This document shows, one piece after another, positions 26,371 through 59,288 of a DNA stretch of 64,000 bases (position 1 is its first letter; every line of letters begins with the position of its first letter). The notes beneath the pieces were generated by a model that saw nothing but the letters and a program-made list of their open reading frames with translations, was not told the origin of the DNA and searched no databases. Source of the DNA: an uncultured virus (IMG/VR IMGVR_UViG_3300025483_001155) (Duplodnaviria > Heunggongvirae > Uroviricota > Caudoviricetes); the IMG/VR virus record IMGVR_UViG_3300025483_001155; one strand, given 5' to 3'. Both the position numbers and the translations under genes were made by a program.

Positions 26371-26417
26371 CTCTAACTTATACACTCTTTATATAGTGAT
26401 TCGTTACGAATGTCAAG
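26371..26417 (-). promoter_or_regulatory. Repeated early sigma70 promoter with GANTC site
   Basis: TTGACA-17 bp-TATAAA; TGATTCG at 26397-26403. Confidence 0.85.
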
Positions 26418-26423
26418 CAAAAT

Positions 26424-26918
26424 CTACAAAATAAGAATATCAAATGGAGATATTTCCATACTATTCATATCACTCAGAAATTTAGGTTCTTTTTGCGTAT
26501 CCAATGACCATTCTTTTTCTGCAATAAATTTACCTTGTCTTTTTGTATTGTATATAAATGCATTAAAATGTTTATTGATTGTGGACGAACTGTAATCTAA
26601 TTTTTTAATTCCCTGTAATGGATTACCAAACAATGGTCGCCAATTTCTTGGTTTGTTTTTTTCGGTTAATGTGAAGTTATTGTATTGATAATCTATCAAA
26701 TATAATTCACTATCATCACCAACCGAAGCATCACTCATTGTATGCAGACACATTTCCACAGTTTCATGTAACATATCTGTATCCGTGTAATTATATAATT
26801 CTGATAAGTACTCAGAATACTTATGTACAACAACTTCCAATGCCAAGTTACTAGAAAGATATCGTTGCAGCAAAGAAGCAGTTATTATTGAGTATACAAA
26901 TCTTGGAGCGTATGACAT
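26424..26918 (-). CDS. Hypothetical protein
   Basis: 164-aa ORF with AGGA SD. Confidence 0.55.
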   Translation of the reverse strand: MSYAPRFVYSIITASLLQRYLSSNLALEVVVHKYSEYLSELYNYTDTDMLHETVEMCLHTMSDASVGDDSELYLIDYQYNNFTLTEKNKPRNWRPLFGNPLQGIKKLDYSSSTINKHFNAFIYNTKRQGKFIAEKEWSLDTQKEPKFLSDMNSMEISPFDILIL

Positions 26919-27039
26919 TAAATTATCCTAAAAACATATGAACAATTCCCATAAGAGCAATTGCGCTCATAAGGTCAGAAGTAAAATCAATCATAAGGAG
27001 TTGCAAAGTATTAAATATATTCAACTCCTTGTTTGATTA

Positions 27040-27081
27040 ACTTATACACTCTTTATATGATGATTCGGATAAGATGTCAAG
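27040..27081 (-). promoter_or_regulatory. Repeated early sigma70 promoter with GANTC site
   Basis: TTGACA (27075-80), 17 bp, TATAAA (27052-57); TGATTCG 27061-67. Confidence 0.85.
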
Positions 27082-27087
27082 AACTTT

Positions 27088-27426
27088 TTAGTCATATGCG
27101 TCTAATAATTTAGTTTTATCATCAGTATATCCTTTAGCAGGATTAATATCATCTGCCCCAGGCAATGGTTCTTTTTGATCTACAATAACTTCCCATTGCT
27201 CAGACCACTTAGCGTTAATATCATATAAACGCTGTGTATATAATGGATCTGTATCTGCTATGATTGCATCAGCAGGACACTCAGGTTCACACACTCCACA
27301 ATCAATACATTCATCCGGGTTGATTACTAACATTTCTTCGCCTTCATAAAAGCAATCTACTGGGCAAACTTCTACACAATCAGTATACTTACATTTAATA
27401 CAATCTTGTGTTACTACATACGTCAT
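27088..27426 (-). CDS. fdxA: 7Fe ferredoxin (FdxA family)
   Basis: [43 protein letters not shown]. Confidence 0.95.
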
Positions 27427-27451
27427 TAAGGTTCTCCATTAATAATTAATA

Positions 27452-27479
27452 TGTTGGTCTGATATTTCACAGACCAACA
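27452..27479. terminator. Hairpin / possible terminator
   Basis: TGTTGGTCTG...CAGACCAACA inverted repeat. Confidence 0.5.
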
Positions 27480-27486
27480 ATTATTA

Positions 27487-27837: not shown

Positions 27838-27864
27838 TTTGTTCTCCTTTGTGTGTAAGTGTGT

Positions 27865-28178
27865 AATGTAACTATTCTGTTGCTAGGTCAGTTACCAACC
27901 CCCACATACCTAAACTAGGCTGCTAATGCCATTTCTGGCGCATAATTTGCGTTTGCAATTATAAAGTTTGTTCGCGGTAACGGCGCTTACATCCCGGTAA
28001 CTCCATTCATCTATCTTGTCAGTCGATCCTAGTTCAGCCCCATCAAAACTACACTCAAGTCTATTCTCTTTCGAGTCCTTACTTGCACTAGGCCAACCGC
28101 TCAAGTGTAGTTATGGTGGAGCTGCGCGGTACTGCCCCGCGGTCCTGTCCAATCGTCAAATCACTTCAACGTTACATT
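27865..28178 (-). ncRNA. ssrA: Circularly permuted two-piece tmRNA (alphaproteobacterial type)
   Basis: Acceptor piece ..GCGGGGCAGTACCGCGCAGCTCCACCA ends 28114; coding piece starts GGGGCTGAACTAGGATCGAC at 28041; G3.U70 pair; tag ANANYAPEMALAA* at 27956-27915. Confidence 0.93.
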
Positions 28179-28213
28179 CTATTTATAACATATTTTGAGA
28201 GTGATGTCAATAG

Positions 28214-28241
28214 AAAAGGCAGTGCGTCGATTCACTGCCTT
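28214..28241 (-). terminator. Rho-independent terminator
   Basis: AAGGCAGTG...CACTGCCTT stem with short U tract. Confidence 0.6.
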
Positions 28242-28247
28242 CCACTA

Positions 28248-29219: not shown

Positions 29220-29318
29220 ATTATTTCTCCTCTGCTTGATGGCTTTACCCCATCGCTCACGTTAAAGATAGGCTCGACGTTGCCTACAAACTATTTATAA
29301 CATATTTTAATTGCAATG

Positions 29319-29901: not shown

Positions 29902-30597
29902 TTAAGTCCCAGTGCTGTTATGTTTTCTAGCCATAAATTCTTTTGCTGTTTCAACCGCAACTGCAGCATCTCTGCAATAAGCATCTGCACCAATTGCATT
30001 GCCGAATTCTTCATTCAATGGAGCACCGCCTACTAATATAGTATAATCATCCCGTATGCCCTTTTCTACCATTGTATCAATTACAACTTTCATGTAAGGC
30101 ATCGTGGTTGTAAGTAACGCACTCATTCCTAGTATGTGTGGCTTATGTTCTTCCATTGCCTCCAAGTAACTTTCAACTGAATTATTAATCCCAATATCAA
30201 CTACCTCAAAGCCAGCACCTTCCATCATCATGCCCACTAGGTTCTTGCCTATATCGTGTATGTCGCCTTTAACAGTGCCAATCACCATTGTTCCAACTTG
30301 TGGCGCACCGGTTTCTGCTAGTAAAGGTTTCAGAATAGCCATTCCACCCTTCATCGCATTTGCTGCCAGCAAAACTTCAGGTACAAAAAGAATACCATCT
30401 CTGAAATCTATACCAACAATTGTCATACCTGCAACTAATGATTCTGTTAACACACGATATGGTTCCCAACCACGTTCTAAAAGAATATTAGTACCTTCTT
30501 CGACTTCCTCTTTGAGACCATCATACAGATCGTCTCCCATTTGAATCACAAGTTCATCGTCTGGCAACTCTGATAAAATGATTTCATCTTCACTCAT
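29902..30597 (-). CDS. Stand-alone cobalamin-binding corrinoid protein (MetH B12 domain/MtbC-like)
   Basis: Cap domain FVPEVLLAANAM; GTVKGDIHDIGKNLV (DxHxxG), SALLTTT, VGGAP. Confidence 0.92.
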   Translation of the reverse strand: MSEDEIILSELPDDELVIQMGDDLYDGLKEEVEEGTNILLERGWEPYRVLTESLVAGMTIVGIDFRDGILFVPEVLLAANAMKGGMAILKPLLAETGAPQVGTMVIGTVKGDIHDIGKNLVGMMMEGAGFEVVDIGINNSVESYLEAMEEHKPHILGMSALLTTTMPYMKVVIDTMVEKGIRDDYTILVGGAPLNEEFGNAIGADAYCRDAAVAVETAKEFMARKHNSTGT

Positions 30598-30783
30598 AAT
30601 ATAATACTCTTTCAATTGTCATATATTTATATAGTTTCATCCCATAATTTAAAATCATTAGAAATTTCTTCCGGCAATCTGCTGTCAAATTCGGTAATTA
30701 TGTCTGATACTGATATCGGACCATTTAACTGTAATGGCATATAAATTCTCCTAGAATAATAATGTTATCTGTATTTATCAATA

Positions 30784-34982: not shown

Positions 34983-35177
34983 ATGACACTAAACCTATTT
35001 AGTGCCCTAGCAAATCTTTTTGGAGGATTTCCTAATAGGGCAACAAAACGCTCAGACTTAATGACTTGGGCAAAAACAGAGTATGCACGTGATTGGGAAT
35101 TTGCTTACCAATACATGCTTGATAACCGTGGCAAAGCGCCATCACACAGACACACACAAGGAATAACACATGATTAA
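34983..35177 (+). CDS. Small hypothetical protein
   Basis: GGAG SD; WAKTEY.RDW.FAY motif. Confidence 0.65.
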   Translation: MTLNLFSALANLFGGFPNRATKRSDLMTWAKTEYARDWEFAYQYMLDNRGKAPSHRHTQGITHD

Positions 35178-35403
35178 TAAACTAGTAGTAGCATACAAAA
35201 ATTTTAGAACTGAAATGGATTATAGAAATAAAGTTCGTACAACAATCAAAGAACTGTCCGCACTTTCAAATTATGAACTAAATGATATCGGAATCTCACG
35301 TGGTGAAATTTATGATGTTGCACACAATTCATATAAAAGGCCAGTAACGGTTTTGGCTAATGATAATGTAAGAGTAAACGAAAATTTGAGAGGATTTGTA
35401 TAA
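35170..35403 (+). CDS. DUF1127 (YjiS-like) small protein
   Basis: R.TIKELSALSNYELNDIGISRGEI. Confidence 0.88.
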   Translation: MINKLVVAYKNFRTEMDYRNKVRTTIKELSALSNYELNDIGISRGEIYDVAHNSYKRPVTVLANDNVRVNENLRGFV

Positions 35404-35724: not shown

Positions 35725-35976
35725 TTAATTAGGACCAGCAATGAAATGTAGTTTGAGCATTATGCCTTCTACATCTGCTGGTTCAAGATAAGGTATAACA
35801 TCATCTCCTGTATGTATACCAGGTAGTTGAACAAAATTATTATTCTTGAACACCGCAATTTCATAAAGTTTTTTGCCTGGTTCTTGTATTACACTTAACT
35901 CATACTTACCAAAATATTTTTTGGCTTGAAAGTGTTGTGGTCGTATTTCATTAAATTTTAAATCACAAAAATTCAT
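35725..35976 (-). CDS. Hypothetical protein
   Basis: YELSVI..LYEIAVF motif; likely start MNFCD. Confidence 0.6.
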   Translation of the reverse strand: MNFCDLKFNEIRPQHFQAKKYFGKYELSVIQEPGKKLYEIAVFKNNNFVQLPGIHTGDDVIPYLEPADVEGIMLKLHFIAGPN

Positions 35977-36184
35977 TGTTTGTATCCTCAAATTTTTCTT
36001 CTATTGATTTAATATGTTTGCATTTTTTAAATGCTGGACAATCACATGTAAATCCCTTGTCAGACATTTTAATTGTGTATATATTATCTTTGCTGCCTGA
36101 CACATTCCATTCGGTGTCAACTGCCCAATGGTCTTTAGTATTAATCAGGTCACTGGGAAATATACGTGGCCCATACTTTGCCAT
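35963..36184 (-). CDS. SWIM zinc-finger protein
   Basis: GS..YT..CDCPAFKKCKH. Confidence 0.75.
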   Translation of the reverse strand: MAKYGPRIFPSDLINTKDHWAVDTEWNVSGSKDNIYTIKMSDKGFTCDCPAFKKCKHIKSIEEKFEDTNNEFL

Positions 36185-36525
36185 TATACAGTTTCAAATC
36201 CAAAATTTGCTACAACTGAACGATTGCCATCAGCATCTTCGATAATATTTCCAACTGAAATACTAGACATTTTTCCAAATCGCTCAATACGATCTTCTGG
36301 TCCAATATTTCCTACTTCAAAAACATGATCAAGACTATCAGCAACAATGTTGGCAACGTGAGTATAACATTCATCGAATTTCATAGCAGCCGCTTTAAAA
36401 TTTCCAAATGTTGCATCTGCATATGCAGTTGCTTTTTCATGACAATTCCAGCCCTCTTTATTAACCAGTTCTACTAGTTTTTCATCTAATTGAATTTGAT
36501 AAACTTTAAAAACTTGAACTGACAT
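36184..36525 (-). CDS. Hypothetical early protein
   Basis: VFEVGN..SISVGNII..FGF; downstream of promoter repeat. Confidence 0.7.
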   Translation of the reverse strand: MSVQVFKVYQIQLDEKLVELVNKEGWNCHEKATAYADATFGNFKAAAMKFDECYTHVANIVADSLDHVFEVGNIGPEDRIERFGKMSSISVGNIIEDADGNRSVVANFGFETV

Positions 36526-36547
36526 ATGAGATTTCCTTGTTGCTATC

Positions 36548-36585
36548 TATACATTCTTTATAGACTGATTCGTTTTTTATACAGG
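36548..36585 (-). promoter_or_regulatory. Promoter repeat copy with GANTC, degenerate -35
   Basis: TATAAA 36557-62; TGATTCG 36566-72. Confidence 0.65.
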
Positions 36586-36792
36586 TCTATATACAGCCCT
36601 ATCTACAAATGTATGTGTGTGCATTGGATTGTAATAAGGCATTGGTTCTTCGAACGTTTCAATGCTTTTTGTAAGTACATCTGCCTTAACCATTTTTTCC
36701 AAATGATACCTAGCAGTAGGATTTTTAATACCATTCTCTTTAGCATATTCATTAATAGTAACACTAATAGTTGGAACTGCAAATTTAAACAT
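36577..36792 (-). CDS. Small putative winged-helix DNA-binding protein
   Basis: TINEYAKENGIKNPTARYHLEKMVK; AAGGAG SD. Confidence 0.6.
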   Translation of the reverse strand: MFKFAVPTISVTINEYAKENGIKNPTARYHLEKMVKADVLTKSIETFEEPMPYYNPMHTHTFVDRAVYRPV

Positions 36793-36814
36793 CTATTAAC
36801 TCCTTATTTCTAAC

Positions 36815-36855
36815 TTTATACATTCTTTATAGACTGATTCGTTTGAATTGTCAAG
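36815..36855 (-). promoter_or_regulatory. Repeated early sigma70 promoter with GANTC site
   Basis: TTGACA 36849-54, 17 bp, TATAAA 36826-31; TGATTCG 36835-41. Confidence 0.85.
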
Positions 36856-36877
36856 TATTATTTCACACTTTTAGAGA

Positions 36878-37063
36878 TTAAACCTCGTCAATTAGAACAC
36901 AATCTTCCTCTTCATCTTTACTCAGGTAAATCGCATCAAAAAGAGTTTTTGGTACAACGCCCAGACCAACTGCACGACGAGTTTGACAATAATGTGCATA
37001 ATCTTCACACTCTTTAATTTCTGGTAGATATAAGTGTGATGAAACGATAATTTCTTGTGTCAT
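36878..37063 (-). CDS. Small hypothetical early protein
   Basis: Own promoter at 37095-37123. Confidence 0.6.
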   Translation of the reverse strand: MTQEIIVSSHLYLPEIKECEDYAHYCQTRRAVGLGVVPKTLFDAIYLSKDEEEDCVLIDEV

Positions 37064-37080
37064 GTGATTCTCTTTCTTGT

Positions 37081-37124
37081 TAACTTATACATACTTTATA
37101 GAGTATTTTGTTCTTGATGTCAAG
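37081..37124 (-). promoter_or_regulatory. Promoter repeat copy lacking the spacer GANTC
   Basis: TTGACA 37118-23, 17 bp, TATAAA 37095-100. Confidence 0.75.
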
Positions 37125-37142
37125 TAAAAAAATAATGTTTAT

Positions 37143-37340
37143 TCAACTAAATTTTTCTACGTGGACAACAAACCCAACTTGGCGCTTAGGATCATTAACG
37201 TCATGCCCGCTATCGTGCGTAAATGGTCCACGAATGTGAGTGTCACGGTCAGGGCGGCCTGTTTCTTTTGTATTAAAACGTTTGATATAAGTTTCGGCTT
37301 CTTCTTTTGTTTTGAAGAAATAACTGTTTTTCTTATGCAT
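37143..37340 (-). CDS. Small hypothetical early protein
   Basis: FKTKEEAETY motif; own promoter. Confidence 0.6.
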   Translation of the reverse strand: MHKKNSYFFKTKEEAETYIKRFNTKETGRPDRDTHIRGPFTHDSGHDVNDPKRQVGFVVHVEKFS

Positions 37341-37354
37341 GACGAATCCCTTTT

Positions 37355-37401
37355 CTCTAACTTATACATTCTTTATAAAGTGATTCGGTTAGAATGTCAA
37401 G
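37355..37401 (-). promoter_or_regulatory. Repeated early sigma70 promoter with GANTC site
   Basis: TTGACA 37395-400, 17 bp, TATAAA 37372-77; TGATTCG 37381-87; near-identical to 26371-26417. Confidence 0.85.
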
Positions 37402-37508
37402 TGAAAAACGCAAGAAAGAATCCTGCGTTTTCAATGACTTATAAATTAATTTGTATATATCTTACGATATGCTTAGGTGTCTACTCCATACATTACAATG
37501 CTATTATA

Positions 37509-39218
37509 TCACACTGCCAGTTCATAATCAAGTCCTAAATCTTCTGCATCTACAATAGACATTTCACGCTGGCCAGACTTGGTCTTTACGAATACCATTT
37601 GTGGAGATACCATTTGTGGAGTTTCATCTTCTTCGACATCGTATGATACAAACTTATCTATGTAGAACATAACAAAATTGCGAAAAGTAGTATGCCATGC
37701 ACTATTTGTCGGCATGAAAGGATGATCAGAATAGGCCATTGACAGATCCATAATAGCCTTAAATCTTTCATCATAATCATCACGCAATTTCAAATCATCA
37801 AATGATTGCCACTTCCGTTCATAGTACAGATTATCGATAATTTCCTCTACTGTGATATTTGATCCAAATAATTTGTTTGTTTCGTCACCAAATGAAGCGA
37901 ACAAGAACGCACACACATAATTTGCAAAATACTTATCGTGATTACTGCTAACTTTAGTAATAGGCATTGTACCTTCATAATAGTCCATTGCCTTTTTCAG
38001 GTTACCAATCGGTGTTGCGACTGTACGAGCATCCCTTGCACGATTTGCAAGCATACCAGATGCAACAACTGCTACATTGTTAATAAGTGCATTGTAATTT
38101 ACTATACCCAATGATGATTTTGTTACTTGAAAACCGGTTAACTGATACAAACGAATTGGAATTTCAATGAGTGGATTAATTTCATTGATATCTAGTTTTT
38201 GTGGAAACGCCCCCCGGGTGTCCAAGTCTTCATAAATTTTACGCTTGATATCTGCACCAATATCAATCCATTGCGGATCATAACGACCGATAACTTTCAT
38301 GTTAAACTCACGGTCTTCCATGTTTTTCATGTTGCCTTTACCAAGAATATCGTTTTCACCTAAGTTTTGCATGTTCCATTTTTTATAGACTTCGTTGTTC
38401 TCAATCGCAATAGGATCTCCTACTGCCAACTTAGAACGGTGACTTAATGCAGCTTCAATGATAGACCCACCTTTATTAAGCTGTCTAAAGTCGTTTGCTT
38501 GTAAGTTGATTACAGTTTCATCACCTGGATTATCCAGAATACCGTTACGAGTTTCTGCTTCTACAACCATTTTACTCATGAAGTCGTACACGTTTTTAAA
38601 CTCACCAGAGTAAATACGACCAAATGCAAGAACAACTCGCATACTGATACTTTGTAAACCATCTGAAACAGTCAAAAACATATTGTCGTCTTTTTTCCAA
38701 CCAACAACTTTTACGTTTTTAGTTTCCATGTAATTCCAAACACAGCGTGGGTCACGTGTTTCATCTTCAATGCATGGAAGAAAATCAAACATAGTTACAA
38801 TGTTAGCAGAAACTTGAGGACCACGTTGATAATAGCATAGACGCAATGCAGATGCCATCAACTTGCCTACAATCTTACTCTTTCCAGTATTCTTGAATTC
38901 TGGTGTGTTTTCGTTTTCAGTAACTATCAATGATTCTATCTTACGTGATTGATCCTTCACGTATTCGGATGTCATAATGAAGTTGACAAGCTCAATATCG
39001 TTGACCTGAGGAATAGAAATGATATTTGTGCTTTTCTTTCCCATTTCCTTAACGAAACAATCATACAGTTCTTGCAAAATAACATGAATAGTCTCACCAT
39101 ATGCATCATCTTTTGATGGCATTTTTGATGCTACAAAACTGTGAAAATACCCAGGACTAGATATAACCGCATCCATGTAGTTTAGCATTTGAATTTTATT
39201 GTTAGTATTTACCTTCAT
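37509..39218 (-). CDS. Large hypothetical protein, possible ParB/DUF262-like domain
   Basis: YYQRG ... VSDGLQS resemble YQR and DGQQR/DGQHR motifs. Confidence 0.45.
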   Translation of the reverse strand: MKVNTNNKIQMLNYMDAVISSPGYFHSFVASKMPSKDDAYGETIHVILQELYDCFVKEMGKKSTNIISIPQVNDIELVNFIMTSEYVKDQSRKIESLIVTENENTPEFKNTGKSKIVGKLMASALRLCYYQRGPQVSANIVTMFDFLPCIEDETRDPRCVWNYMETKNVKVVGWKKDDNMFLTVSDGLQSISMRVVLAFGRIYSGEFKNVYDFMSKMVVEAETRNGILDNPGDETVINLQANDFRQLNKGGSIIEAALSHRSKLAVGDPIAIENNEVYKKWNMQNLGENDILGKGNMKNMEDREFNMKVIGRYDPQWIDIGADIKRKIYEDLDTRGAFPQKLDINEINPLIEIPIRLYQLTGFQVTKSSLGIVNYNALINNVAVVASGMLANRARDARTVATPIGNLKKAMDYYEGTMPITKVSSNHDKYFANYVCAFLFASFGDETNKLFGSNITVEEIIDNLYYERKWQSFDDLKLRDDYDERFKAIMDLSMAYSDHPFMPTNSAWHTTFRNFVMFYIDKFVSYDVEEDETPQMVSPQMVFVKTKSGQREMSIVDAEDLGLDYELAV

Positions 39219-39918
39219 TCACTCTTTCCTTATATTCAACGATTGCTTCGTTAATATTCCAGTCATACACTTCTAGTTCATTCTTCATATATGAATCAGT
39301 AATACCAATTATATATCCCAATGGATTATTTGTCAACCTCTTTTGCAGGTTTGTACGATAATCTTCTAATGCACGTGTTTTCGCATTTCCATTATTATGG
39401 TCAACCGTAACAGTGTACATCTTACCAAAATCTTTCTGTCCAACATGTTCGTTCATAAACTTACTATCGTGGTTTTCTGCTTTAGATTTTGCATCCTCTA
39501 TTGCTCCTATATCTATTAACTTTTTAATAGTTTTTAGAAGTTTCTCATAGTAATCTTTAGTAAACAGACTTTGGTAATCCTCAGGATTCAGACCGTATAT
39601 AGGTGCAAGTAAACTCATACGACACCATAAGCCTTGTCTGCGTCTATTGTATGTCCACGGATCTGATCCTCTTGGTTCCCAATCATGTGTATAAGAATGT
39701 ACATCACAATAGGGCTTACAAAGTTTGGATCCAGGTCGCATAGGATCAGGTGTTAACATTTCATCTGTGTATCTACCGCAGCCCATTACGCTGCAAACAA
39801 TCTTACCAGTTTTGATTTCTCGCAGTCTATCTATTTTTATATGTGGAATCCGATTAGGACTCCACATATAATGAGTACTGTCTTCATATTCGATATAATT
39901 AGGCAGATATTGTTTCAT
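39202..39918 (-). CDS. Hypothetical protein with Zn-binding and HNH-like motifs
   Basis: CSVMGC..C..YCDVH; TVDHNNGN. Confidence 0.45.
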   Translation of the reverse strand: MKQYLPNYIEYEDSTHYMWSPNRIPHIKIDRLREIKTGKIVCSVMGCGRYTDEMLTPDPMRPGSKLCKPYCDVHSYTHDWEPRGSDPWTYNRRRQGLWCRMSLLAPIYGLNPEDYQSLFTKDYYEKLLKTIKKLIDIGAIEDAKSKAENHDSKFMNEHVGQKDFGKMYTVTVDHNNGNAKTRALEDYRTNLQKRLTNNPLGYIIGITDSYMKNELEVYDWNINEAIVEYKERVNEGKY

Positions 39919-39922
39919 TTCA

Positions 39923-40447
39923 TTATGCTACATTGAAGAATCGAAGTTCAAATTCGTTTACTGTTAGTGTCTTACGTGCTTGCAGGACAACTTCACGTGA
40001 GAAGTTCTTAGCAAGAGAATCAACATCATGCTTGTTGCGCAGTTCTGCGAACACGGAATCTGCTGCACGTTCATCTGTTATCTTCTGATATACTTTCTTG
40101 TAACGATTAAACATGCGCTTCACAGAAGAAGATTCGTGAAAACCTCCTGACATTGAGAAGTTTACGTTAGCGAGAGTGTAAGAAGATGCTGCTAGTTTTG
40201 TCATTTCAGATGCTTTAACTGCTTCAGATTCTTCTTGTACATCGGTATCGACAGAGATTACTTCTTGTGTCAAATCATTGTAATTATCAGTGATGAATGA
40301 AGTTAGCGTGTTGTTCTCAAGGCGCTTTTGAGTTGACAAGTACTTGGTTTTCAAATACTCAAGTTCATTTAGCGACATAGGTTTCTTGTTTGTACGAACA
40401 TACGCAGTCTTTGTTTTCTCATTCTTTAAGATCATTACGTTATACAT
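39923..40447 (-). CDS. Hypothetical early protein
   Basis: 174 aa, GAGG SD, directly under promoter repeat; weak GIY-YIG-like N-terminus. Confidence 0.6.
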   Translation of the reverse strand: MYNVMILKNEKTKTAYVRTNKKPMSLNELEYLKTKYLSTQKRLENNTLTSFITDNYNDLTQEVISVDTDVQEESEAVKASEMTKLAASSYTLANVNFSMSGGFHESSSVKRMFNRYKKVYQKITDERAADSVFAELRNKHDVDSLAKNFSREVVLQARKTLTVNEFELRFFNVA

Positions 40448-40475
40448 GATAGTACCTCTCTCTGATTACTTAATT

Positions 40476-40505
40476 AATATAGAGTGATTCGTTTAGAATG
40501 TCAAG
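40476..40505 (-). promoter_or_regulatory. Early sigma70 promoter with GANTC site
   Basis: TTGACA 40499-504, 17 bp, TATATT 40476-81; TGATTCG 40485-91. Confidence 0.8.
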
Positions 40506-40809
40506 CAATTTCGTACCAATTATCTTCACGTTGTATCATTTGTTCGTAGAATTTTTTGTGTGCTTTGATATAGTCAGGTTTGTTTAAACGCTCAATTATA
40601 AAGTCACGTTTTTTGAATTCATCGCTCATTACATATTCACTAAACAATTTTGAATACAGTTCTTCATTGTATCTATCGTAAGCGAATGCATACTCTCCCC
40701 ACACACACTGCGCTTCGTCGAATTCTTCTAATGTTAAAATTTGTGATGTATGAAGTGATGTAAGAGCAGGTTGAGTTACGATGTAAGCAGGTTTTTGATT
40801 GCGTAGCAT
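40501..40809 (-). CDS. Hypothetical protein
   Basis: Likely start MLRNQK at 40809 with AAGGA SD; promoter at 40840-40868 contains TGATTC. Confidence 0.6.
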   Translation of the reverse strand: MLRNQKPAYIVTQPALTSLHTSQILTLEEFDEAQCVWGEYAFAYDRYNEELYSKLFSEYVMSDEFKKRDFIIERLNKPDYIKAHKKFYEQMIQREDNWYEIA

Positions 40810-40875
40810 TTTAGTATCCTTATTATTGATTACATAATAAAGATAGCAGTGATTCAAAGATTTGTCAAGTAAAAA

Positions 40876-41700
40876 CTAAGAAAACATATTATTTAAATTA
40901 CCGTCGAATACAAAATGACCTGTGTGGTCTAATTTAACTAATGGGTCAAGTAATATTTCACCGCCAATATTTTGCCAACGACGACAAAATGCATAATCTT
41001 CTGATAGGTATCTCTTAGTATCAGGTTCCAAGTAAGTATCAAAAAATAGATAAGTCCATTTAGCAAACTCAGGATCTAAATTCAAATCATTGTTAAAGTA
41101 AAGATCCGGATATTCTTCGATCATTTTCATAATAACTTCACGCTTGATTAACATAAAGCCTGTTGCAGCATCTTTAAGTAATGCTAATCCATCAGTCATT
41201 TGTATTTTTGGCGTATCGTCATCCAAATTATATTTAAAATTAAGTGCATAGTTTGAACCAACTGAGTTTAATAAGTTTGCATCAATTGATGTATTATTTA
41301 CTACATTTTGTTTTATATTATTCCAGTTCAAATCTTTTTTAGGATATGCACCCACAATAATATCTTTATCGTGTTGCAGCATATGTAAGATATCTAGTGC
41401 ATCAAAATTTATATCAGCATCAATAAACATCATATGTGTTGCATCTGGATTAGCCATGAAATATGCTACCATGTGACATCTAGCACGTGATATTAAACTT
41501 TCGTTAGCACTAGTAGTCAGGGAGTATGGTATTTCATGTTTCGTGAACATCATATGTGCACGGGACCACGACCTAAAGAAAGGTTCAGTTAATTGTCCGC
41601 CATAGCAGGGAGTACAGTAATGCACATGTGTTTTTCTTATAAAATCTAAATCGATTTCTTTTCTAAATTGCAGGCAATGCTCTAATGCGTTATTATTCAA
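40876..41700 (-). CDS. Glycosyltransferase (GT-A/GT2-like)
   Basis: TPCYGG, ESLISRAR, FIDADI, GAYPKK, TGFMLI, LSEDYAFC. Confidence 0.8.
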   Translation of the reverse strand: MNNNALEHCLQFRKEIDLDFIRKTHVHYCTPCYGGQLTEPFFRSWSRAHMMFTKHEIPYSLTTSANESLISRARCHMVAYFMANPDATHMMFIDADINFDALDILHMLQHDKDIIVGAYPKKDLNWNNIKQNVVNNTSIDANLLNSVGSNYALNFKYNLDDDTPKIQMTDGLALLKDAATGFMLIKREVIMKMIEEYPDLYFNNDLNLDPEFAKWTYLFFDTYLEPDTKRYLSEDYAFCRRWQNIGGEILLDPLVKLDHTGHFVFDGNLNNMFS

Positions 41701-41760
41701 TTTTTATCCGCTTCATTAATTTATTGTTAGATTATATTCTACACGATTCTAAAGTATTTG

Positions 41761-42462
41761 TCAACTTCTTTGATCTTTAATCCAGTTCTTAGCCTGTGGC
41801 ATAGATGGCGCCTTATTTAAAAATTTATCAATTGCTCTATCAACTTCTAAGAAATTTGCTTTACGTTCTGGATCTTCTAGGCCACCAGAGTTATCAACAA
41901 CATGAAAGTTTGCTGCACCAAATACTTGTTGGAATTTCATAAGATTGTTTTGAACTTGCTTCCACATTTTAGACACCATTTCAGATGGAATGCTTCTAGG
42001 ACGGTTTTTGTTGCGATCTTGTGCCACGTCTTCACTTGTGTTAACGAATAGCATCATTGTATCGTATCCTAATGCTTTTAGTTGTTCACTTGCTTTAGAA
42101 ACTTTGGCAACATCTTTACCAGTTCCGTCAATGATAAGACCCAAACGACCTTCTAGATAACCGCCCTTGCCTGTTGTAATATCGCCTTGACGTTTATTAG
42201 TTAAGTCTTTTGCTTTGTTACGTGTTCCTTGTCCGTCTGGGCTTGCGATAACTAGGGGGTCTGACATGTCCATATCTTTTTTCTTCATTAGATATTCATA
42301 GATGTCATCGCTGTTAACAGTTTTCAAACCTGTACCCGAAAGCATTTTACCAGCGACAAATGATTTGCCACTACCAGGTCCGCCTGCTAGAAATACTGCT
42401 TTAAAAATGTGAGGATCATTAACGCCCTCTTCAACTGGTTTGATGATTTCATTTACATGCAT
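41761..42462 (-). CDS. P-loop kinase (zeta-toxin/AAA_33-like)
   Basis: AGGPGSGKS, VNSDD, IIDGT, RN..R.R. Confidence 0.8.
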   Translation of the reverse strand: MHVNEIIKPVEEGVNDPHIFKAVFLAGGPGSGKSFVAGKMLSGTGLKTVNSDDIYEYLMKKKDMDMSDPLVIASPDGQGTRNKAKDLTNKRQGDITTGKGGYLEGRLGLIIDGTGKDVAKVSKASEQLKALGYDTMMLFVNTSEDVAQDRNKNRPRSIPSEMVSKMWKQVQNNLMKFQQVFGAANFHVVDNSGGLEDPERKANFLEVDRAIDKFLNKAPSMPQAKNWIKDQRS

Positions 42463-45695: not shown

Positions 45696-47891
45696 TTACA
45701 TTGACCATCTTCTTAACGTATAACTAATTTCTGTATTATAATTTGCATCTTGCGTAAAGTAAATTTGTAAATCGTCGCCCTTTTCTACAGTAGCAGTTTG
45801 TGCTGAATTTACCAAATCGTTTACTACGGTAGTATAATCCCATAGAGGATCTTGGCTTGTAATTATTACATCATCCCCATCTTGCTTCGTTTTTCCTACA
45901 AATCCGCTTGAGTTCAGTGGCGTTTCAAACCAATTATTAATTGCTAACTCTGTTTGATTTGTAACACGTATTATATCTTCACGTTTTACATCAAATTGAA
46001 TATTAGAAAATTCTACTTCCGGTGCCACTGGTGGCGCAGGTACCGCTGGCGGTTCAGGATACAATGGGTTAGGATACATCTCTGCGATATTATCTGTATT
46101 AAAATCTTGCCAAATTTCAGTATGTTCATCTGTTAATTTTACTTGTGGAATACCATGAGGATGACCGTTTATAATTTTTATTTGTCCAGCACGAACAAAT
46201 ACCTTGTTATCTCCGCGCTGTATTAAAGAATAATCAATAAAGAATGTAGTGCATATATCAAAATGATATCGTAAGAATATGTCGTTTGGAATTTCAAATG
46301 TTTTCTTAAACAAACTAGAACGTTTTCCACTGTGGTGAGAGTATGATGATAGATGCTGATCTGCAAATATTTGATTATATGTGTTTTCTGTTAATACTTC
46401 TACATTTTTACGTGATCTTGCATAAAATGGTGCAGTAAATTCTGGAACCTCGATAAAACCAACATCAGTAGTATCAGCATAGTCAACATCCGATGGACTG
46501 CCAACTAATGACTTTGTATAATAATATGCTCTATGTGTATTACTATAATCATATAGAGTAAAATCATTTGAGCCTGGTTGATCTTTTTCTTTAATATAAA
46601 TTGTAGCAAGTCCAACTTCGGATGTTTCCGGTTCTGCGTATACTAACTGATAGTCTAATGTATTTAGAACTGCGATTGCCTCAGTTCTATAAGTTGGTAA
46701 GGTAGTATCATCATATCTATAATAGTTATTAATTTCTTCTATTGTCATCGAAGACAAATCAGAACCAAGCGGAACAGTTGCAACTCTAGGAGATAGTAAA
46801 TCAAACTCTGATAACACAAGTGATAACCCATTCTGTATATCTCGGCTATAATCTATATAGTAATCACCATTTACAAGTGGCGATCCATCACTTCGTAGTG
46901 ATGGGGTTGAAAGTGGAGTTATATCTAAGTCCTGCGTTTCAATATCAGTTGTATGAAATTGAAAATCTTGGACACCACTGCCAAGTTGCTGCCAAGCAGT
47001 ATCTTGTTTATACCAATATGTAACTCTATCTGGGCCAGTAATAACTGCTGTATCACTATTTGCACCAAGACCAGAAATTGGCTGAGGAGGAATTGTTGTA
47101 TAATTTATATTTGAATTCAACGGGTGATAATCAAGGACATGATCTATAACTTCAGGGACCCATTCGGTAGAAACCCACTTGAATAATCCAAAGTTAGACT
47201 TATTCATATAGGTCGAATTATCATTAGGGGCAATATCTTGTGATGGCATGGCATCATTATGTTTCATATACAATGAAGTTACAGTTACATCTCTTACTGA
47301 ATCATATGTTACTGACGTTACAATGCCGTGTGTATAATCTTCAACGCCGATTACCTCTAATACTTCGCCATTTCCATTTAGTGGACCAACTGCAATTGAT
47401 GTAAACTGCAAATTAATATCATTTGATGATGCACCCATAGTTCTGTATTCAGTGTTACCAATCTTTTTTATAATATATGTTTTTCCAGGATCAATCTCAG
47501 ATGATGGTATTCTATTTTGAGCATATTTGTATTCTTTTAGATATAATGTTTCGCCAACTGTGAATTGCACATTGCCTTTCCATTCTACATTTTGTAAATA
47601 AAAATGCATTGCTTCAATTAACGCATCAATGTCTTGTACATTTCTTATTACTAAATCTTCATCAATTTTTAAACCAGGCTCAGGATTGTCATCGCTATCT
47701 AACCAAGTTTGTATAACTGCGTGTGCATTTGCAAAAGCATCAAATTGAATTTCATCAATTGCATCATCGATGCCAACGAACAATTGGTTAGTATCAGTAG
47801 TGAAGCCCATTTCACCGGTTTCTAGTGTATCGACGCCTATTTCCTCACGGAGGCCGCGCCTTAGTAGAATTTTTACGTTTGTTATTGCCAT
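45696..47891 (-). CDS. Virion structural/fibre-associated protein
   Basis: N-terminal KILLRRG..LETGEMGFTTDTNQLFVG (Mtd_N-like); late promoter at 47915. Confidence 0.7.
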   Translation of the reverse strand: MAITNVKILLRRGLREEIGVDTLETGEMGFTTDTNQLFVGIDDAIDEIQFDAFANAHAVIQTWLDSDDNPEPGLKIDEDLVIRNVQDIDALIEAMHFYLQNVEWKGNVQFTVGETLYLKEYKYAQNRIPSSEIDPGKTYIIKKIGNTEYRTMGASSNDINLQFTSIAVGPLNGNGEVLEVIGVEDYTHGIVTSVTYDSVRDVTVTSLYMKHNDAMPSQDIAPNDNSTYMNKSNFGLFKWVSTEWVPEVIDHVLDYHPLNSNINYTTIPPQPISGLGANSDTAVITGPDRVTYWYKQDTAWQQLGSGVQDFQFHTTDIETQDLDITPLSTPSLRSDGSPLVNGDYYIDYSRDIQNGLSLVLSEFDLLSPRVATVPLGSDLSSMTIEEINNYYRYDDTTLPTYRTEAIAVLNTLDYQLVYAEPETSEVGLATIYIKEKDQPGSNDFTLYDYSNTHRAYYYTKSLVGSPSDVDYADTTDVGFIEVPEFTAPFYARSRKNVEVLTENTYNQIFADQHLSSYSHHSGKRSSLFKKTFEIPNDIFLRYHFDICTTFFIDYSLIQRGDNKVFVRAGQIKIINGHPHGIPQVKLTDEHTEIWQDFNTDNIAEMYPNPLYPEPPAVPAPPVAPEVEFSNIQFDVKREDIIRVTNQTELAINNWFETPLNSSGFVGKTKQDGDDVIITSQDPLWDYTTVVNDLVNSAQTATVEKGDDLQIYFTQDANYNTEISYTLRRWSM

Positions 47892-53189: not shown

Positions 53190-54419
53190 TTAATGTGCAG
53201 TGAACCCAGATGGCGGAGTGTAAACGACATCATTTCCAACGTTGAAATATCCACCGAAACTTATGACATTAGAGCTTCTGGAACCAGCAAAAATGACTGG
53301 CGGCACGCTATTTGTAGAATAAACCGCCCCTGACCCAGATGCTGGATCACTGGGCCACCAGGTAGTATTATTCTTATTAATCCAAAGTTCTCCAGTTGCA
53401 CTATCATATGCAAATTGTATTACATCCGATTCTCGAACTGGTGCCCCAAGACCCATGTCTGTAACTGTTACTACGCCATTTGTCTTCGTGATTATTTTCC
53501 CAGTATCAAGCGTATAGGTATGCGATCCGTCTTCCATGCCAAAGCCGAACTGTGTTTGATCTGATCCTGACACTCCTATCATACCTGACGTTGATTCAGC
53601 CCATGCTGCAGAATAGTGCGTCCATATAAACTCAAAGTATTTTTTCCCTGCACTAAGAGTGTTACTTGGAACAGCATTAGTCCAATTATATCCAGTAGTA
53701 TCACCTGTAAAAATGAATCCGTCCTTATATGTGGTCGGGTTGCTGCCAAACGATAAGGTGGTCTCGTTCATTCGAGAATCTGTAGTAAATGTAATAGGAG
53801 TAGTAAAACTCAGTGCTGCGGTAGTAGTAGTAGATATAACGTGTATTCCATCAGTTGCTTTTGCACGGAATGTAAAGCTTCCAGCATCTGTCTCTGTAAT
53901 ACTAGGAGTTAACGTAAATGTTCCATCATTATTATTTACAATTGTTGCTTGTGCTTGATTGCTTGGACTTGTATCATATGTATATGTTATATCAAATCCT
54001 TCTGGATCTGTTGCTGCAACAGTTAGTGTGTTTGCAGTGCCGTCTGAATTTAATGCTACTGAACTTGGTAATTCTGTTGTCCATGTAGGCGTTTCATCTG
54101 GGCCTGCCCAAACTTTGATCCATTCACTGCCATTGTTTATATGTAGTGTGTCAGAATCACTAAGAAATGCTAAATCGCCCTCATTTGCTGCAGCCGCATC
54201 ACGTGCAGCAATACTAGCATATATTGTAACACCACCGCCAGATGATGTTGCGCCGCCGCCCGAACTGCCGCCTGAACCAACTGTATGTCCACCAACAGTT
54301 GCACCATCGTGTACTACTAATTGATTTGTAGTTGTATTCACCGTGACTTCACCTGCTGCGCCAGTAAACGATGCATGTTCTGCAGTTGTTCCACGTCTGA
54401 ATTTTACTGAGTATGCCAT
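53190..54419 (-). CDS. Fibre-like protein: Mtd_N-like N-terminus, Ig-like domain, C-terminal SPRY/ConA-like domain
   Basis: FRRGTTAEHASFTGAAGEV..HDG; ATDPEG..YT; GKKYFEF..IQFAYD..GELWINKN. Confidence 0.75.
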   Translation of the reverse strand: MAYSVKFRRGTTAEHASFTGAAGEVTVNTTTNQLVVHDGATVGGHTVGSGGSSGGGATSSGGGVTIYASIAARDAAAANEGDLAFLSDSDTLHINNGSEWIKVWAGPDETPTWTTELPSSVALNSDGTANTLTVAATDPEGFDITYTYDTSPSNQAQATIVNNNDGTFTLTPSITETDAGSFTFRAKATDGIHVISTTTTAALSFTTPITFTTDSRMNETTLSFGSNPTTYKDGFIFTGDTTGYNWTNAVPSNTLSAGKKYFEFIWTHYSAAWAESTSGMIGVSGSDQTQFGFGMEDGSHTYTLDTGKIITKTNGVVTVTDMGLGAPVRESDVIQFAYDSATGELWINKNNTTWWPSDPASGSGAVYSTNSVPPVIFAGSRSSNVISFGGYFNVGNDVVYTPPSGFTAH

Positions 54420-54479
54420 ATTATTTTCTCCATAATGGTATATGTGAGTATTTATCAATATCTGATGATAATTAAAAAC

Positions 54480-54875: not shown

Positions 54876-55724
54876 TTACTTTCTTCTGGATTGAAATTTT
54901 GTTAGACCAGATTTTGTTGGTCTATCATACGTTGTTTTTGCCAATCGTTTGCCTAGTTCTTCAGCGCCCTTACTAATAGCATAAATGCCACCAATTGCTG
55001 CTGCCCCTTTAACAATAGGTTTATCCCAAATCTTTTTCTTTTTATCGTTTCTATCATTTACCATATAATTGCCACGCTTTTGAAAAGATAGTAATGGTTT
55101 CATAAACTCACTGCGGAGTGCTTTGGAACGCATATATTGAACACAGCGTGTTACTACTAGTGCACGTTGATTTTGATTCAAATTATCCCAATCACCAATC
55201 AATCGGCGCATTGATTTCATCATACTATCTTGTATATTCAATTGGTTTTGGAATCTAAGTAACATTTTTTGCTCAAACGCTGAATTAGTTTTGTTATTTC
55301 CAATGTGAGTTAGATATTGTACTAAATCTGCTTTTTTAGGTGATAATCTTTTCTTAGCAATTACATCTTTTTCATTACTATCATCTTGGTCTTTGCCCAT
55401 CAAACGGTTTAAAGAAATGTATAGATCCGTTCCACTTGTTCTAAATGTATCAAAATTTCTAAAGGCTACTGTACGTTTTGCATATTCACTTGCCAATGGC
55501 GCATAATCATAATCTTTATTAAAAATATTTAATAGCATTAAATACATGAATGAAACATTGGCGGCATCATCTAAATTAACCTCACTTGCTATCTTTTTAT
55601 TTCTAAACAAGCGGCTTTCAGTTAGTTCGTGTACTAATTGTAAACTTTTATCATCATTGTCATCAATTTCGTGGCCACCATATATTGTTGCCCATTGGCT
55701 TGCTGTATATTTTTTTTCACTCAT
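54876..55724 (-). CDS. Hypothetical protein
   Basis: ELTESRLFR..FRTSGTDLY motifs. Confidence 0.7.
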   Translation of the reverse strand: MSEKKYTASQWATIYGGHEIDDNDDKSLQLVHELTESRLFRNKKIASEVNLDDAANVSFMYLMLLNIFNKDYDYAPLASEYAKRTVAFRNFDTFRTSGTDLYISLNRLMGKDQDDSNEKDVIAKKRLSPKKADLVQYLTHIGNNKTNSAFEQKMLLRFQNQLNIQDSMMKSMRRLIGDWDNLNQNQRALVVTRCVQYMRSKALRSEFMKPLLSFQKRGNYMVNDRNDKKKKIWDKPIVKGAAAIGGIYAISKGAEELGKRLAKTTYDRPTKSGLTKFQSRRK

Positions 55725-55926
55725 GTGTCATCCCCTTAAATAGGTTTGCAAGATTAATAATTTTATTACTTGCATATGTTTTGCAGCATCTAGGTATGAT
55801 TGAATGTATAATAATTGCAAATACGGCAATCTGAAGTTGTAGAGCAATACCAAGTGCAAATTTTGCATGTTGTAACGGCCCCATATTCGCTTCTTCCAAG
55901 TGTTCTTTACATTCTTTACTAAACAT
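55717..55926 (-). CDS. Small hypothetical protein
   Basis: HL......H..FA....IIHSIIP motif. Confidence 0.6.
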   Translation of the reverse strand: MFSKECKEHLEEANMGPLQHAKFALGIALQLQIAVFAIIIHSIIPRCCKTYASNKIINLANLFKGMTHE

Positions 55927-55938
55927 ATTATTTCCTAA

Positions 55939-57285: not shown

Positions 57286-57500
57286 TTCTTATCTCCAAAT
57301 GGATTTTCACCAGTTAATTGCGGTCTTGCAAACCACAACTTAAACCACTCATCCGTTCCAGGCTGTATATTATTCTTTTTCTGATACTCGCCTTTTTCTT
57401 GGCCAGTATGTGAAATATTCTCCTGATGTTGAGATACATCATAGGGCTTATATATACCTGCTAGAACCTTTAGTTGGTGCAACTGCTGTTCAAAATCCAT
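57282..57500 (-). CDS. Small hypothetical protein
   Basis: LKVLAGI..IQPGTDEWFKLWF. Confidence 0.65.
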   Translation of the reverse strand: MDFEQQLHQLKVLAGIYKPYDVSQHQENISHTGQEKGEYQKKNNIQPGTDEWFKLWFARPQLTGENPFGDKK

Positions 57501-57736
57501 TATTTGTCTACACTATTCATGCCTCGCTTAAACTTCCGCGGGTCTTTTGTACGGATACTGTTAACTAAACGTTTTTGTAAATCATTTGAGGTTTCTTCAT
57601 CAAAATTATTTTCAATGAATTCCATCAAATGTATCGCACCTGCAATAAGGTGTTCACCCTTTTGTTCAACTAGCCGCTTATTATCTTTATCATAAGATAT
57701 GCTGTTTAGTTCTTCAAATAGACTTTTACGTTTCAT
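57500..57736 (-). CDS. Small hypothetical protein
   Basis: GGAG SD; late promoter 57755. Confidence 0.65.
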   Translation of the reverse strand: MKRKSLFEELNSISYDKDNKRLVEQKGEHLIAGAIHLMEFIENNFDEETSNDLQKRLVNSIRTKDPRKFKRGMNSVDK

Positions 57737-57761
57737 AACAATTCTCCGTTAAGTGTATTTA

Positions 57762-59183
57762 TCAAGTTTCGTCAAAAGCAGATCGACTTTTAGTTTTAAG
57801 CATCGATCTGAGTGAACTTGCTGCCTGCGTCTTTTCAAATACCGGAGTATCATCTTCATCTGATTTGTTTAGAGTAGTTTTCTTTCTAAGTTGGTCAACC
57901 ACACTAGAAGAAACGTTTGTTGATGATGGTGTGCCGGCGCCATTACTATTTTGGTCTGGATCATCTGTAATGCGCAAACTATCTCTATCAAATAATAAAC
58001 TTACTTTACTACCAACACCAGAAGATGATCGTGTTTTTAACAATTGAAGTTGGTATTGACCTCTCTCACGCATTGCATTAGATGTAAAGATACCTATAAC
58101 GTTATCTGCAGTTTGAATTTTACTAATGCCACCAGCAATATGAGAGTGATCAAATTCAATTTCTTCAACTGCACTACGATTTAATTGTGATGCTGTCACT
58201 GTAACAGTCTGTGTTTCCATAGAAAAGTTGCGCATTTCTTCGGTAACATATTTGTCTTTGGTGAATGTATCACCTGCTTGGACCTTTTTAGTTGCTGGCA
58301 TTAACAAATCTAGATAGTCAATACACATACAATCAACTGTTTTGCCAGTTTGTATCTGAAGTTCTTTCAAGTAAGACCTTAGATCATTGATTGTTGAACC
58401 ACTCGGAAGATACTTTATACGTAGCATACCGGACTGTTTGCCTTTCGCTTTGACTTGTAGTTCAACATCATCTAGGTCTTTAAAAATGCGTCTAGTACTG
58501 CGGTCCGTCTGCATTGCATACATACGCATACTTGAAAGTTCCTCGGATAACTCCAATGTGAAGTAGACACAATTCAACCCAGCCTCCGCCCAATTCAGGC
58601 TCATATTTTGCATAAAAAGGGATTTACCTGCCCCGGAGCCGCCTGCAAAAATCGTAATCTCCCCACGATTAATGCCACCATATAACTTATCATCAAGAGA
58701 TTTCCAACCAGTCGTAATCTGACCATTATTGTCTTTCATCCGTTCAAGCACACCTCTAGGATCAGCAAAATAATCTGTTCCTAAACTACGTGCCAGTCCA
58801 ATTTGAACAGCCTCTTTAATTCTAAGTTCTACTTCACCGTATTTGCCAGTCTCAAGTAAATCTGTGCTATCGATAATAGCCTTCTCAATAGCCTTGTGCC
58901 GGCAAAATGTCTCAAACTCATCCACAAACCATTCTTCGTGCTGGGTTATGTTGTCCAACTTCTCAATGTCTTGCCCCGTTTCTGCCTTAATAATTGCAGT
59001 ATCTGGCAGTGTAGAATAATCTTCACTATAATCAATAAGTTGTTTGACCACAGGACGAACACTGCGGTCAAAATATTCAGGCTTAATAATCCCTCTGATC
59101 CTAGTATATAGTTCAGGATTAGTCACCATGAATTGAATGAATAATTTCTGTAAGTCTGTGCTATAATTTTTTACTTCTGACAT
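57762..59183 (-). CDS. Replicative DNA helicase (T4 gp41/DnaB-like)
   Basis: AGGSGAGKS, TLELSE, IDYLDL, TASQLNR, LKTR. Confidence 0.93.
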   Translation of the reverse strand: MSEVKNYSTDLQKLFIQFMVTNPELYTRIRGIIKPEYFDRSVRPVVKQLIDYSEDYSTLPDTAIIKAETGQDIEKLDNITQHEEWFVDEFETFCRHKAIEKAIIDSTDLLETGKYGEVELRIKEAVQIGLARSLGTDYFADPRGVLERMKDNNGQITTGWKSLDDKLYGGINRGEITIFAGGSGAGKSLFMQNMSLNWAEAGLNCVYFTLELSEELSSMRMYAMQTDRSTRRIFKDLDDVELQVKAKGKQSGMLRIKYLPSGSTINDLRSYLKELQIQTGKTVDCMCIDYLDLLMPATKKVQAGDTFTKDKYVTEEMRNFSMETQTVTVTASQLNRSAVEEIEFDHSHIAGGISKIQTADNVIGIFTSNAMRERGQYQLQLLKTRSSSGVGSKVSLLFDRDSLRITDDPDQNSNGAGTPSSTNVSSSVVDQLRKKTTLNKSDEDDTPVFEKTQAASSLRSMLKTKSRSAFDET

Positions 59184-59189
59184 TTGTAT

Positions 59190-59288
59190 ATTATATCATT
59201 TCTATGTATAAAGGTCAACACTTTTAATCAAAAAGTGCCGAGTTTAAATTAGTTTCTTCTTTATATAGTGATTCGTATTATTTGTCAA
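59190..59288 (-). promoter_or_regulatory. Tandem sigma70 promoters for helicase (distal one with GANTC)
   Basis: TTGACC 59213-18 with TATAAT 59190-95; TTGACA 59283-88 with TATAAA 59260-65 and TGATTCG 59269-75. Confidence 0.75.

Follow-up and report, generated by a model that had tools for sequence, protein, structure and literature searches.

GcrA is an alphaproteobacterial protein that rides on region 2 of sigma70 and reads N6-methyladenine (m6A) in GANTC, the site of the DNA methyltransferase CcrM, and the two form a textbook epigenetic reader-writer pair that drives the bacterial cell cycle. To our knowledge, phages have so far been linked to GcrA and CcrM only via phage-borne gcrA or ccrM-like genes. 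Here we analyse a 64,000-nucleotide stretch of DNA from an uncultured virus of the Caudoviricetes (IMG/VR record IMGVR_UViG_3300025483_001155; hereafter the window), in which a seven-base box, TGATTCG on the template strand, lies at a fixed place in the spacer of promoters spread over positions 26,371 to 59,288. The window is part of a phage genome, and all counts for this phage rest on these 64 kb. Its promoters appear to belong to the known GcrA-box class, which would now extend to phage genomes, where its distribution suggests that it is widespread and convergent.

In Caulobacter, the GcrA motif recovered by MEME from chromatin immunoprecipitation data was given as 'TGATTCG or, more broadly, YGAKTCK', and the same paper describes a narrow cluster of regulon sites around -20 and a broad one from +2 to +30 (Haakonsen 2015, PMC4647560). 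A later study puts upstream GcrA boxes at -20 +/- 1 and -30 +/- 2, and the non-template strand of its PcsM-derived cryo-electron microscopy (cryo-EM) scaffold, TTGACA-CCCGGG-CG(m6A)ATC-CCTGC-TATAAT, has GAATC at spacer positions 8-12 (Wu 2023, PMC9976885). GcrA reads methyl groups on both strands but makes the same base contacts on unmethylated DNA. In the literature searched, the supplements of Mascolo 2022 and Gill 2012 aside, we found no published description of GcrA boxes in phage promoters; Mascolo 2022 (PMC9437464) reports a GcrA-matrix scan of alphaproteobacterial phage genomes with no positional asymmetry.

Nearly all open reading frames (ORFs) of the window are on the minus strand, and the promoters therefore read there as TTGACA-N7-CGAATCA-N3-TATAAA, with -35 and -10 elements of sigma70 type. 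A 17-bp spacer with the heptamer 3 bp from the -10 is found at 26416, 27080, 36854, 37400, 40504 and 59288 (first T of TTGACA), where the exception to TATAAA is the TATATT at 40504. These promoters, all on the minus strand, stand upstream of ORF 25960-26385 (promoter 26388..26416, box 26397-26403, joined by CTA to the -10), of ORF 26424-26918 (27052..27080, box 27061-27067), of the 71-aa ORF 36577-36792, which has a weak HTH_20 match (36826..36854, box 36835-36841), of the small ORF 37143-37340 (37372..37400, box 37381-37387), of ORFs 39923-40447, 39202-39918 and 37509-39218 (40476..40504, box 40485-40491), and of a DnaB-like helicase gene at 57762-59183 (59260..59288, box 59269-59275), the last of them directly after a hairpin terminator. 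TGATTCG itself occurs on the plus strand at 26397, 27061, 36566, 36835, 37381, 40485, 59269 and 62178, and on both strands of the window together there are 12 matches versus 6.6 +/- 2.6 expected. The copy at 62178 is within a methyltransferase gene, ~40 nt past its likely start, and is not a spacer site.

The observation that started this work came from a first-pass annotation, which had described six such promoters, a seventh upstream of the helicase and an eighth with a shifted box, most of them TTGACA-17 bp-TATAAA; the observation is confirmed and all its coordinates are correct. For the six, the box and the 3-bp distance were found in every case, and the -35 was found in all except the site at 36566, where the box (36566-36572) is followed by GTC, TATAAA and the family leader (36557..36572, minus strand, upstream of ORF 36184-36525) and no -35 is recognisable; relatives carry TTGACA at this place. 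The site before the helicase has the full layout as described, and the shifted site is also as described, being a variant promoter at 40840..40868 (minus strand) in which TGAATCA (40850-40856; TGATTCA on the template strand) is 1 bp further from a TGc-TATCTT -10. The list of eight was incomplete, missing a second variant at 41736..41764 (minus strand, upstream of ORF 40876-41700), in which AGAATCG (plus-strand GATTC at 41745-41749) is shifted 1 bp towards the -10, TAGAAT.

We regard it as near certain, from the distribution of the box in the sequence records, that it is a real, selected promoter element that is specific in position and orientation. Sites of the form TTGACA-N17-TAnAWW number 44, 16 in the window and 28 in G002, a 155-kb IMG/VR record that is syntenic with the window at 80-91% nucleotide identity; none of the 44 is on the non-coding strand, and the spacer contains GAATC in 27. 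A blind scan of IMG/VR, in which the -35, the -10 and the leader were fixed and the spacer was left free, returned 91 instances, of which 60 were unique, and among the unique promoters 46/60 had CGAATCA at spacer positions 8-14 and 53/60 had GANTC there or within 2 bp. Across 44 unique spacers that had not been constrained for the heptamer, information content was 0.78-1.75 bits at positions 8-14 versus 0.04-0.51 bits at positions 1-7, in agreement with the earlier proposal that the heptamer is selected; it does not merely reflect duplication of whole promoters, as 32 box-bearing spacers contained 29 different upstream N7 sequences. The accompanying statement that the other spacer bases vary was right for these seven upstream bases, but the block downstream of the -10 (GAnTGTATAAGTTAGAGA) is also conserved, which makes the conserved block longer than the spacer box. 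The full box pattern was present in at least 135 stretches across IMG/VR, versus 2 in which the heptamer was flipped, 0 with the pattern reversed and 5 in which GAGTC or GACTC (GASTC) stood at that place. The pattern TTGAC-N7-9-CGAATC-N4-TA gave 24, 23, 13 and 5 matches, one-stranded in each genome, in the related records G003, G004, G005 and G006, and its reversed control gave 0.

The placement of the box relative to the other promoter elements is informative as to how it might act. In the 16-bp-spacer promoters of G003 the box stays 3 bp from the -10 while its distance to the -35 is not kept, and the arrangement therefore suits a protein anchored on sigma region 2. Within the window and G002, the box and a TGn extended -10 are mutually exclusive (TGn in 1/27 boxed versus 8/17 unboxed promoters, Fisher p ~0.001), and where the -10 ends in A, 25 of 28 promoters have either the box or TGn; no significant association was seen in the same set between the box and a -10 without the final T (p = 0.34). 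By these patterns the box looks like an activator element that makes up for a weak -10. A generic sigma70 scan was uninformative here (86 sites versus 78.9 expected) and, since it requires the -10 to end in T, passes over TATAAA promoters. Elsewhere in IMG/VR (loci L143, L151, L159, L165 and L201), another group of viral promoters with TATAAAGAATGTATAGCAAGGAGA has, where the box would be, CCCATTT or CCAAAAC plus TGc.

The leader GAnTGTATAAGTTAGAGA was located at 26360-26393, 27025-27057, 36800-36831 and 37345-37377 (minus strand), with a second -10-like TATAAG ~11 bp downstream. This leader is specific to the family, as G416, a boxed phage outside it, does not have it, and it may act as a pause element or represent a conserved 5' leader. 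One promoter of the family, at 37095..37123 (minus strand), has the same -35, TATAAA and leader without a spacer box, and has GAATC at ~+25 in its leader. In box-less family promoters (37123 in the window; 104711 and 27550 in G002) GAATC lies at ~+24/+25 directly before the start codon, as GAGAATCAC-ATG, which is inside the interval published for downstream GcrA boxes (+2 to +30), and the boxed promoter 37372..37400 has a second GATTC in its 5' leader at ~+24. An excess of GANTC in 5' leaders was not clear (7/44 versus ~4 expected).

On its template strand the phage box is TGATTCG, equal to the published GcrA consensus. YGAKTCK fits 27/27 spacer boxes of the window and G002 on that strand, 22 of the 27 being TGATTCG; the set of 27 is defined by a regular expression, and the variant at 40850, which is the only box in the window outside YGAKTCK, is also outside the set. 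GAATC occupies spacer positions 9-13 in the same orientation as in the PcsM scaffold, which corresponds to -21 to -17 as counted from the -10 hexamer, with the box centre near -19/-20. Both the consensus match and the predicted spacer position near -20 gain support from comparison with published sites rather than from experiment. The suggested genome-wide count of GANTC gave 127 in the window versus 161 expected, and this depletion is uneven, with 109 versus 152 expected (0.72) in coding DNA and 18 versus 9.4 expected (1.9 times) between genes. Bacteria that bear CcrM are reported to have the same bias, that is, coding depletion and intergenic enrichment of GANTC (Gonzalez 2014, PMC3973325).

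The window, with a G+C content of 35%, is part of a several-hundred-kb (jumbo-type) marine phage of an uncultured family, because of its relatives and because neither a megablast search of 8 kb nor a blastn search of one promoter matched any cultured phage. In addition to G002, these relatives include G003 (342 kb, 92% complete by CheckV, with a helicase 78% identical to that of the window) and G004, which has many proteins in common with the window at 40-80% identity; the jumbo phages PA5oct and Atu_ph07 have helicases with 51% identity to that of the window. Contigs from marine metatranscriptome libraries contain parts of the window, some of them letter for letter, and four marine metatranscriptome runs have parts of 35900-41900 as contigs, which show neither start nor strand.

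The box is also present outside this family. G416 is a complete 46-kb siphovirus-like phage with terminal repeats, a T7-type primase-helicase, PolA, ribonucleotide reductase and a tape measure protein, and has only a handful of genes in common with the jumbo family; it has three TTGACA-N7-CGAATCA-N3-TA promoters before a block of small ORFs, without the jumbo-family leader. Two of these three promoters have a poor -10 (TAAGTA and TAAACA; L313, 15300-19900), which fits activator dependence. Its nearest cultured relative is Roseobacter phage CRP-6, with a capsid protein 57.6% identical and a Rhodobacteraceae host; CRP-6 has one site with the box layout, which is inside an annotated small ORF and is weak support alone. 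Two small early proteins of unknown function are common to G004 and G416, and we considered whether a shared phage protein might read the box; the few small proteins common to both phage types match no DNA-binding family, and this candidate was rejected. A common host factor rather than a lineage-specific one would be the simpler reading, because the unrelated G416 has the box and the shared small proteins have no match to a DNA-binding family.

Several features suggest that this host is probably an alphaproteobacterium. The window encodes a full-length permuted transfer-messenger RNA (tmRNA) of the alpha type at 27865..28214 (minus strand; RF01849, 118 bits versus a gathering threshold of 50, model positions 1-355), which ARAGORN also calls as permuted, with the tag peptide ANANYAPEMALAA, and which therefore points to an alphaproteobacterial host. 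The tmRNA is kept in 3/5 related records (G002, G003 and G005), and its promoter at 28210 is TGt-TATAAA without a box. The best genome matches of the M17 aminopeptidase of the window are in the alphaproteobacterial Emcibacteraceae, Kordiimonadaceae and Erythrobacteraceae (49-53% identity), and GcrA is present in 5/5 of the genomes with the best M17 matches. GcrA is also present in 197/301 sampled alphaproteobacteria, a tally that includes two genomes flagged as unpublished (G051 and G251). The first-pass annotation had proposed GcrA of either host or phage as the reader of the box. Family searches found no gcrA homologue in the ORFs of the window or in G001-G006, of which one record is 92% complete, and the phage part of the proposal was dropped; therefore only a host factor remains as a GcrA-type reader.

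Taking these lines together, we favour, with moderate confidence, docking of host RNA polymerase that carries GcrA as the best explanation of the box promoters; that GcrA itself reads the box we hold to be somewhat better than an even prospect. On this proposal, host holoenzyme already loaded with GcrA would dock on the box promoters, with the polymerase on one face of the DNA and the DNA-binding domain of GcrA on the other, in the major groove at ~-19/-20, and GcrA would aid binding and opening where the -10 lacks the usual final T. The genes served would be small early-type ORFs and the helicase and, in relatives, a CcrM-like methyltransferase; the class is presumed to be early because of its sigma70-type core and the small unknown ORFs downstream. 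Transcription start, host, GcrA binding, need for methylation and timing are all inferred at this stage.

A number of observations weigh against this explanation. In 301 alphaproteobacterial genomes the strict layout showed no enrichment (22 matches versus ~29 for the reversed control), and it is therefore a phage design rather than the copy of a promoter common in hosts. The box position has only GAATC, and GAGTC or GACTC almost never, which fits any sequence-specific reader equally, and with a consensus -35 the promoters may fire without help. Atu_ph07 and Phosso, phages of Agrobacterium and Sinorhizobium that are related by helicase, lack the architecture: the spaced pattern had 0 matches in Atu_ph07, Phosso and PA5oct, and the short pattern had 2 in Atu_ph07 versus 1 for the control. 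Related genomes share ancestry, so that the counts and p-values given above are not independent. On the side of the host, the tmRNA had no close DNA match in 401 sampled alphaproteobacteria, and naming the host from it failed, with only short weak matches in 8/401 sampled and in 5 chosen genomes; naming it from the M17 peptidase also failed, as the phage protein is on a long unresolved branch among alphaproteobacteria. No GcrA match was found in 104/301 sampled alphaproteobacteria, and GcrA of A. tumefaciens bound its probes only if they were methylated (PMC13687562). Lastly, a putative SAM (S-adenosylmethionine) lyase of the phage, described below, would oppose methylation of replicated DNA.

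The heptamer could instead be the operator of another sequence-specific protein, activating or shutting off, in which case the match to GcrA would be coincidental; we consider this unlikely, if the most serious of the alternatives. Candidate proteins would be a small early phage protein, such as the HTH-like product of ORF 36577-36792, or an unknown host factor. One word, CGAATCA, is strictly used rather than any GANTC, as an operator would have it, and a weak preference for TTC at spacer positions 1-3 gives many copies a partial symmetry, ATTC-N5-GAAT; the site is nevertheless asymmetric and single, as for monomeric GcrA. The HTH-like ORF is directly behind a box promoter, but its match is under the Pfam cut-off (24.4 versus 27 bits), and the two small early proteins found in both G004 and the unrelated G416, which might have supplied a shared reader, match no DNA-binding family. 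A conserved 7-mer would be TGATTCG or its complement by chance in ~1 in 8000 cases, position and orientation also agree with GcrA promoters, and the variant boxes of the window and G002 are all within YGAKTCK (27/27).

Two further explanations do without a reader at the promoter. A mobile terminator-promoter-leader cassette, in which the heptamer tunes spacer shape for RNA polymerase and there is no trans-acting reader, would account for the ~50 bp in common that include the leader GAnTGTATAAGTTAGAGA and often an upstream terminator, and for the non-orthologous genes that the promoters head; promoter 26416 of the window, for instance, matches two G002 promoters and nothing else there. We rate it as quite improbable: the box is fixed but the 7 bases before it vary almost freely (29 N7 among 32), G416 lacks the leader and still has its box in the same position, and orientation is absolute across IMG/VR. 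Still less credible, to the point of being very improbable, is that the sites are mainly methylation targets for defence or counter-defence (HinfI-type protection or self marking) and are in promoters incidentally. The overall depletion of GANTC is as under restriction avoidance, and phage methyltransferases do occur in the family, but a fixed position and orientation, with fixed flanks 3 bp from the -10, are not predicted by defence, and intergenic GANTC is enriched, not avoided.

Since the first-pass annotation had linked the promoters to a phage methyltransferase likened to CcrM, we compared this enzyme with CcrM itself. The gene at 61301..62227 (minus strand) encodes a 308-aa N6/N4 DNA methyltransferase whose beta class was upheld (PF01555, 127.9 bits); the likeness to CcrM was not, and the two are kin at class level only. 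On the NCBIfam CcrM model NF050803 the METHYLTRANSFERASE (61301-62227) scores 74.3 bits versus a cut-off of 830, over residues 236-302 only, and with the CcrM structure 6pbd it aligns only at 234-295, the SAM-binding motif. In common with CcrM (M.CcrMI, PDB 6pbd, NF050803) it has the PF01555 beta-class fold and this motif, and it differs from CcrM in its middle region and lacks the C-terminal domain. The closest PDB entry is the DpnA-named enzyme 5hfj, and the best cultured-phage matches are ~30% identical. G001 has a copy that is 99% identical, G002, G003 and G005, three of the four large relatives searched, lack the gene and keep box promoters, and its neighbour ORF is also missing from G002. 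The gene thus appears to be a variable accessory gene and not a CcrM orthologue, and its product is unlikely to write GANTC.

A different enzyme in relatives is a closer counterpart. G001, G002 and G005 encode a 288-aa methyltransferase that aligns with CcrM across the whole catalytic domain (E 2.9e-21) and scores 98 bits on the CcrM model, versus the same cut-off of 830. A box promoter heads the operon that contains its gene, next to the helicase on the upstream side, and the window has no copy of it. In G002 it is part of a two-gene insert between ClpP and the helicase (G002:C1:123232-124877, L298), together with a 243-aa ORF, and the promoter before the insert in relatives is the one with direct control of the helicase in the window. 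The window also encodes the SAM lyase family protein (20919..21449, minus strand), the gene for which has its own box-less promoter at 21499 and is 77% identical in the distant relative G004; SAM lyase and DNA methyltransferase thus coexist in the same genome.

The first-pass annotation had gone on to propose a switch between the methylation states of incoming and newly replicated DNA, which is complicated by the SAM lyase gene of the phage, and its interpretation as a whole is partly supported. An extended form of it, in which the box promoters would be an epigenetic timer coupling infection with the cell cycle of the host, and on which unrelated marine phages of alphaproteobacteria would have converged, we consider speculative and rather doubtful. 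Virion DNA would arrive methylated at GANTC, the work either of the CcrM of the host or of the CcrM-like enzyme whose gene is under a box promoter in relatives; polymerase loaded with GcrA, available only in replicating host cells, would fire the early genes; and replication together with the SAM lyase would leave daughter DNA hemimethylated or unmethylated, which would turn the early class off without a phage repressor.

The remainder of the window encodes replication and protease genes (DnaB-like helicase, primase, ClpP, ClpX and ClpS), IF3, ribosomal protein bS21, Hsp20, the M17 aminopeptidase, the SAM lyase, tail-fibre proteins with an Mtd_N domain and the beta-class DNA methyltransferase. 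Its proteostasis kit is unusually full for a phage, with M17 aminopeptidase, ClpS, Hsp20, bS21, IF3 and ClpX in a proteostasis and translation cluster at 16735-25146 and 59546-60232 (both minus strand), and ClpP elsewhere. The Mtd_N domain, known from the tropism determinant of Bordetella phage, begins two tail-fibre-like proteins (45696-47891 and 53190-54458, minus strand), and the window showed no reverse transcriptase. Two small proteins, of the DUF1127 and DUF6356 families, and a protein with a B12-binding domain are encoded at 35170-35403 (plus strand), 55717-55926 (minus strand) and 29902-30615 (minus strand).

If the box promoters do respond to host GcrA, abundant marine phages would make their first genes depend on how their own DNA is methylated and on a host protein produced only in replicating cells, which would affect when infections start in slow-growing ocean bacteria. 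The box would then also be a sequence signature for predicting alphaproteobacterial hosts of uncultured phages, and a source of compact, strong GcrA-responsive promoters for alphaproteobacterial genetics.

Among the described phage systems close to this one are the CtrA sites in promoters of alphaproteobacterial phages, which likewise wire phage promoters to a host cell-cycle regulator, independently in several groups (PMC9437464). There the regulator is another one and the site is TTAA-N7-TTAA, with support from electrophoretic mobility shift assays and reporters; the box pattern of the present phage is not described in that study. The phiCbK-like Caulobacter phages also engage the GcrA pathway of an alphaproteobacterial host; they bring a GcrA homologue protein, while this phage brings the DNA site and no gcrA was found in the window or in six related records (Gill 2012, PMC3556154). 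Among cellular promoters, the GcrA/CcrM sigma70 promoters of Caulobacter crescentus, as described in PMC4647560, PMC5887438 and PMC9976885, have in common with the phage promoters a sigma70 core and a single asymmetric YGAKTCK box, and differ from them in that the phage -35 is fully consensus, the phage genome is AT-rich and dependence on GcrA and methylation is putative in the phage. The PcsM (upstream-box) type has its box in the -35/-10 spacer at ~-20, where the phage box would also lie as counted from the -10, and both have CGAATC on the non-template strand; relative to the cryo-EM scaffold the phage box is 1 bp nearer the -10, and the phage promoters lie in phage DNA and not in a cell-cycle regulon.

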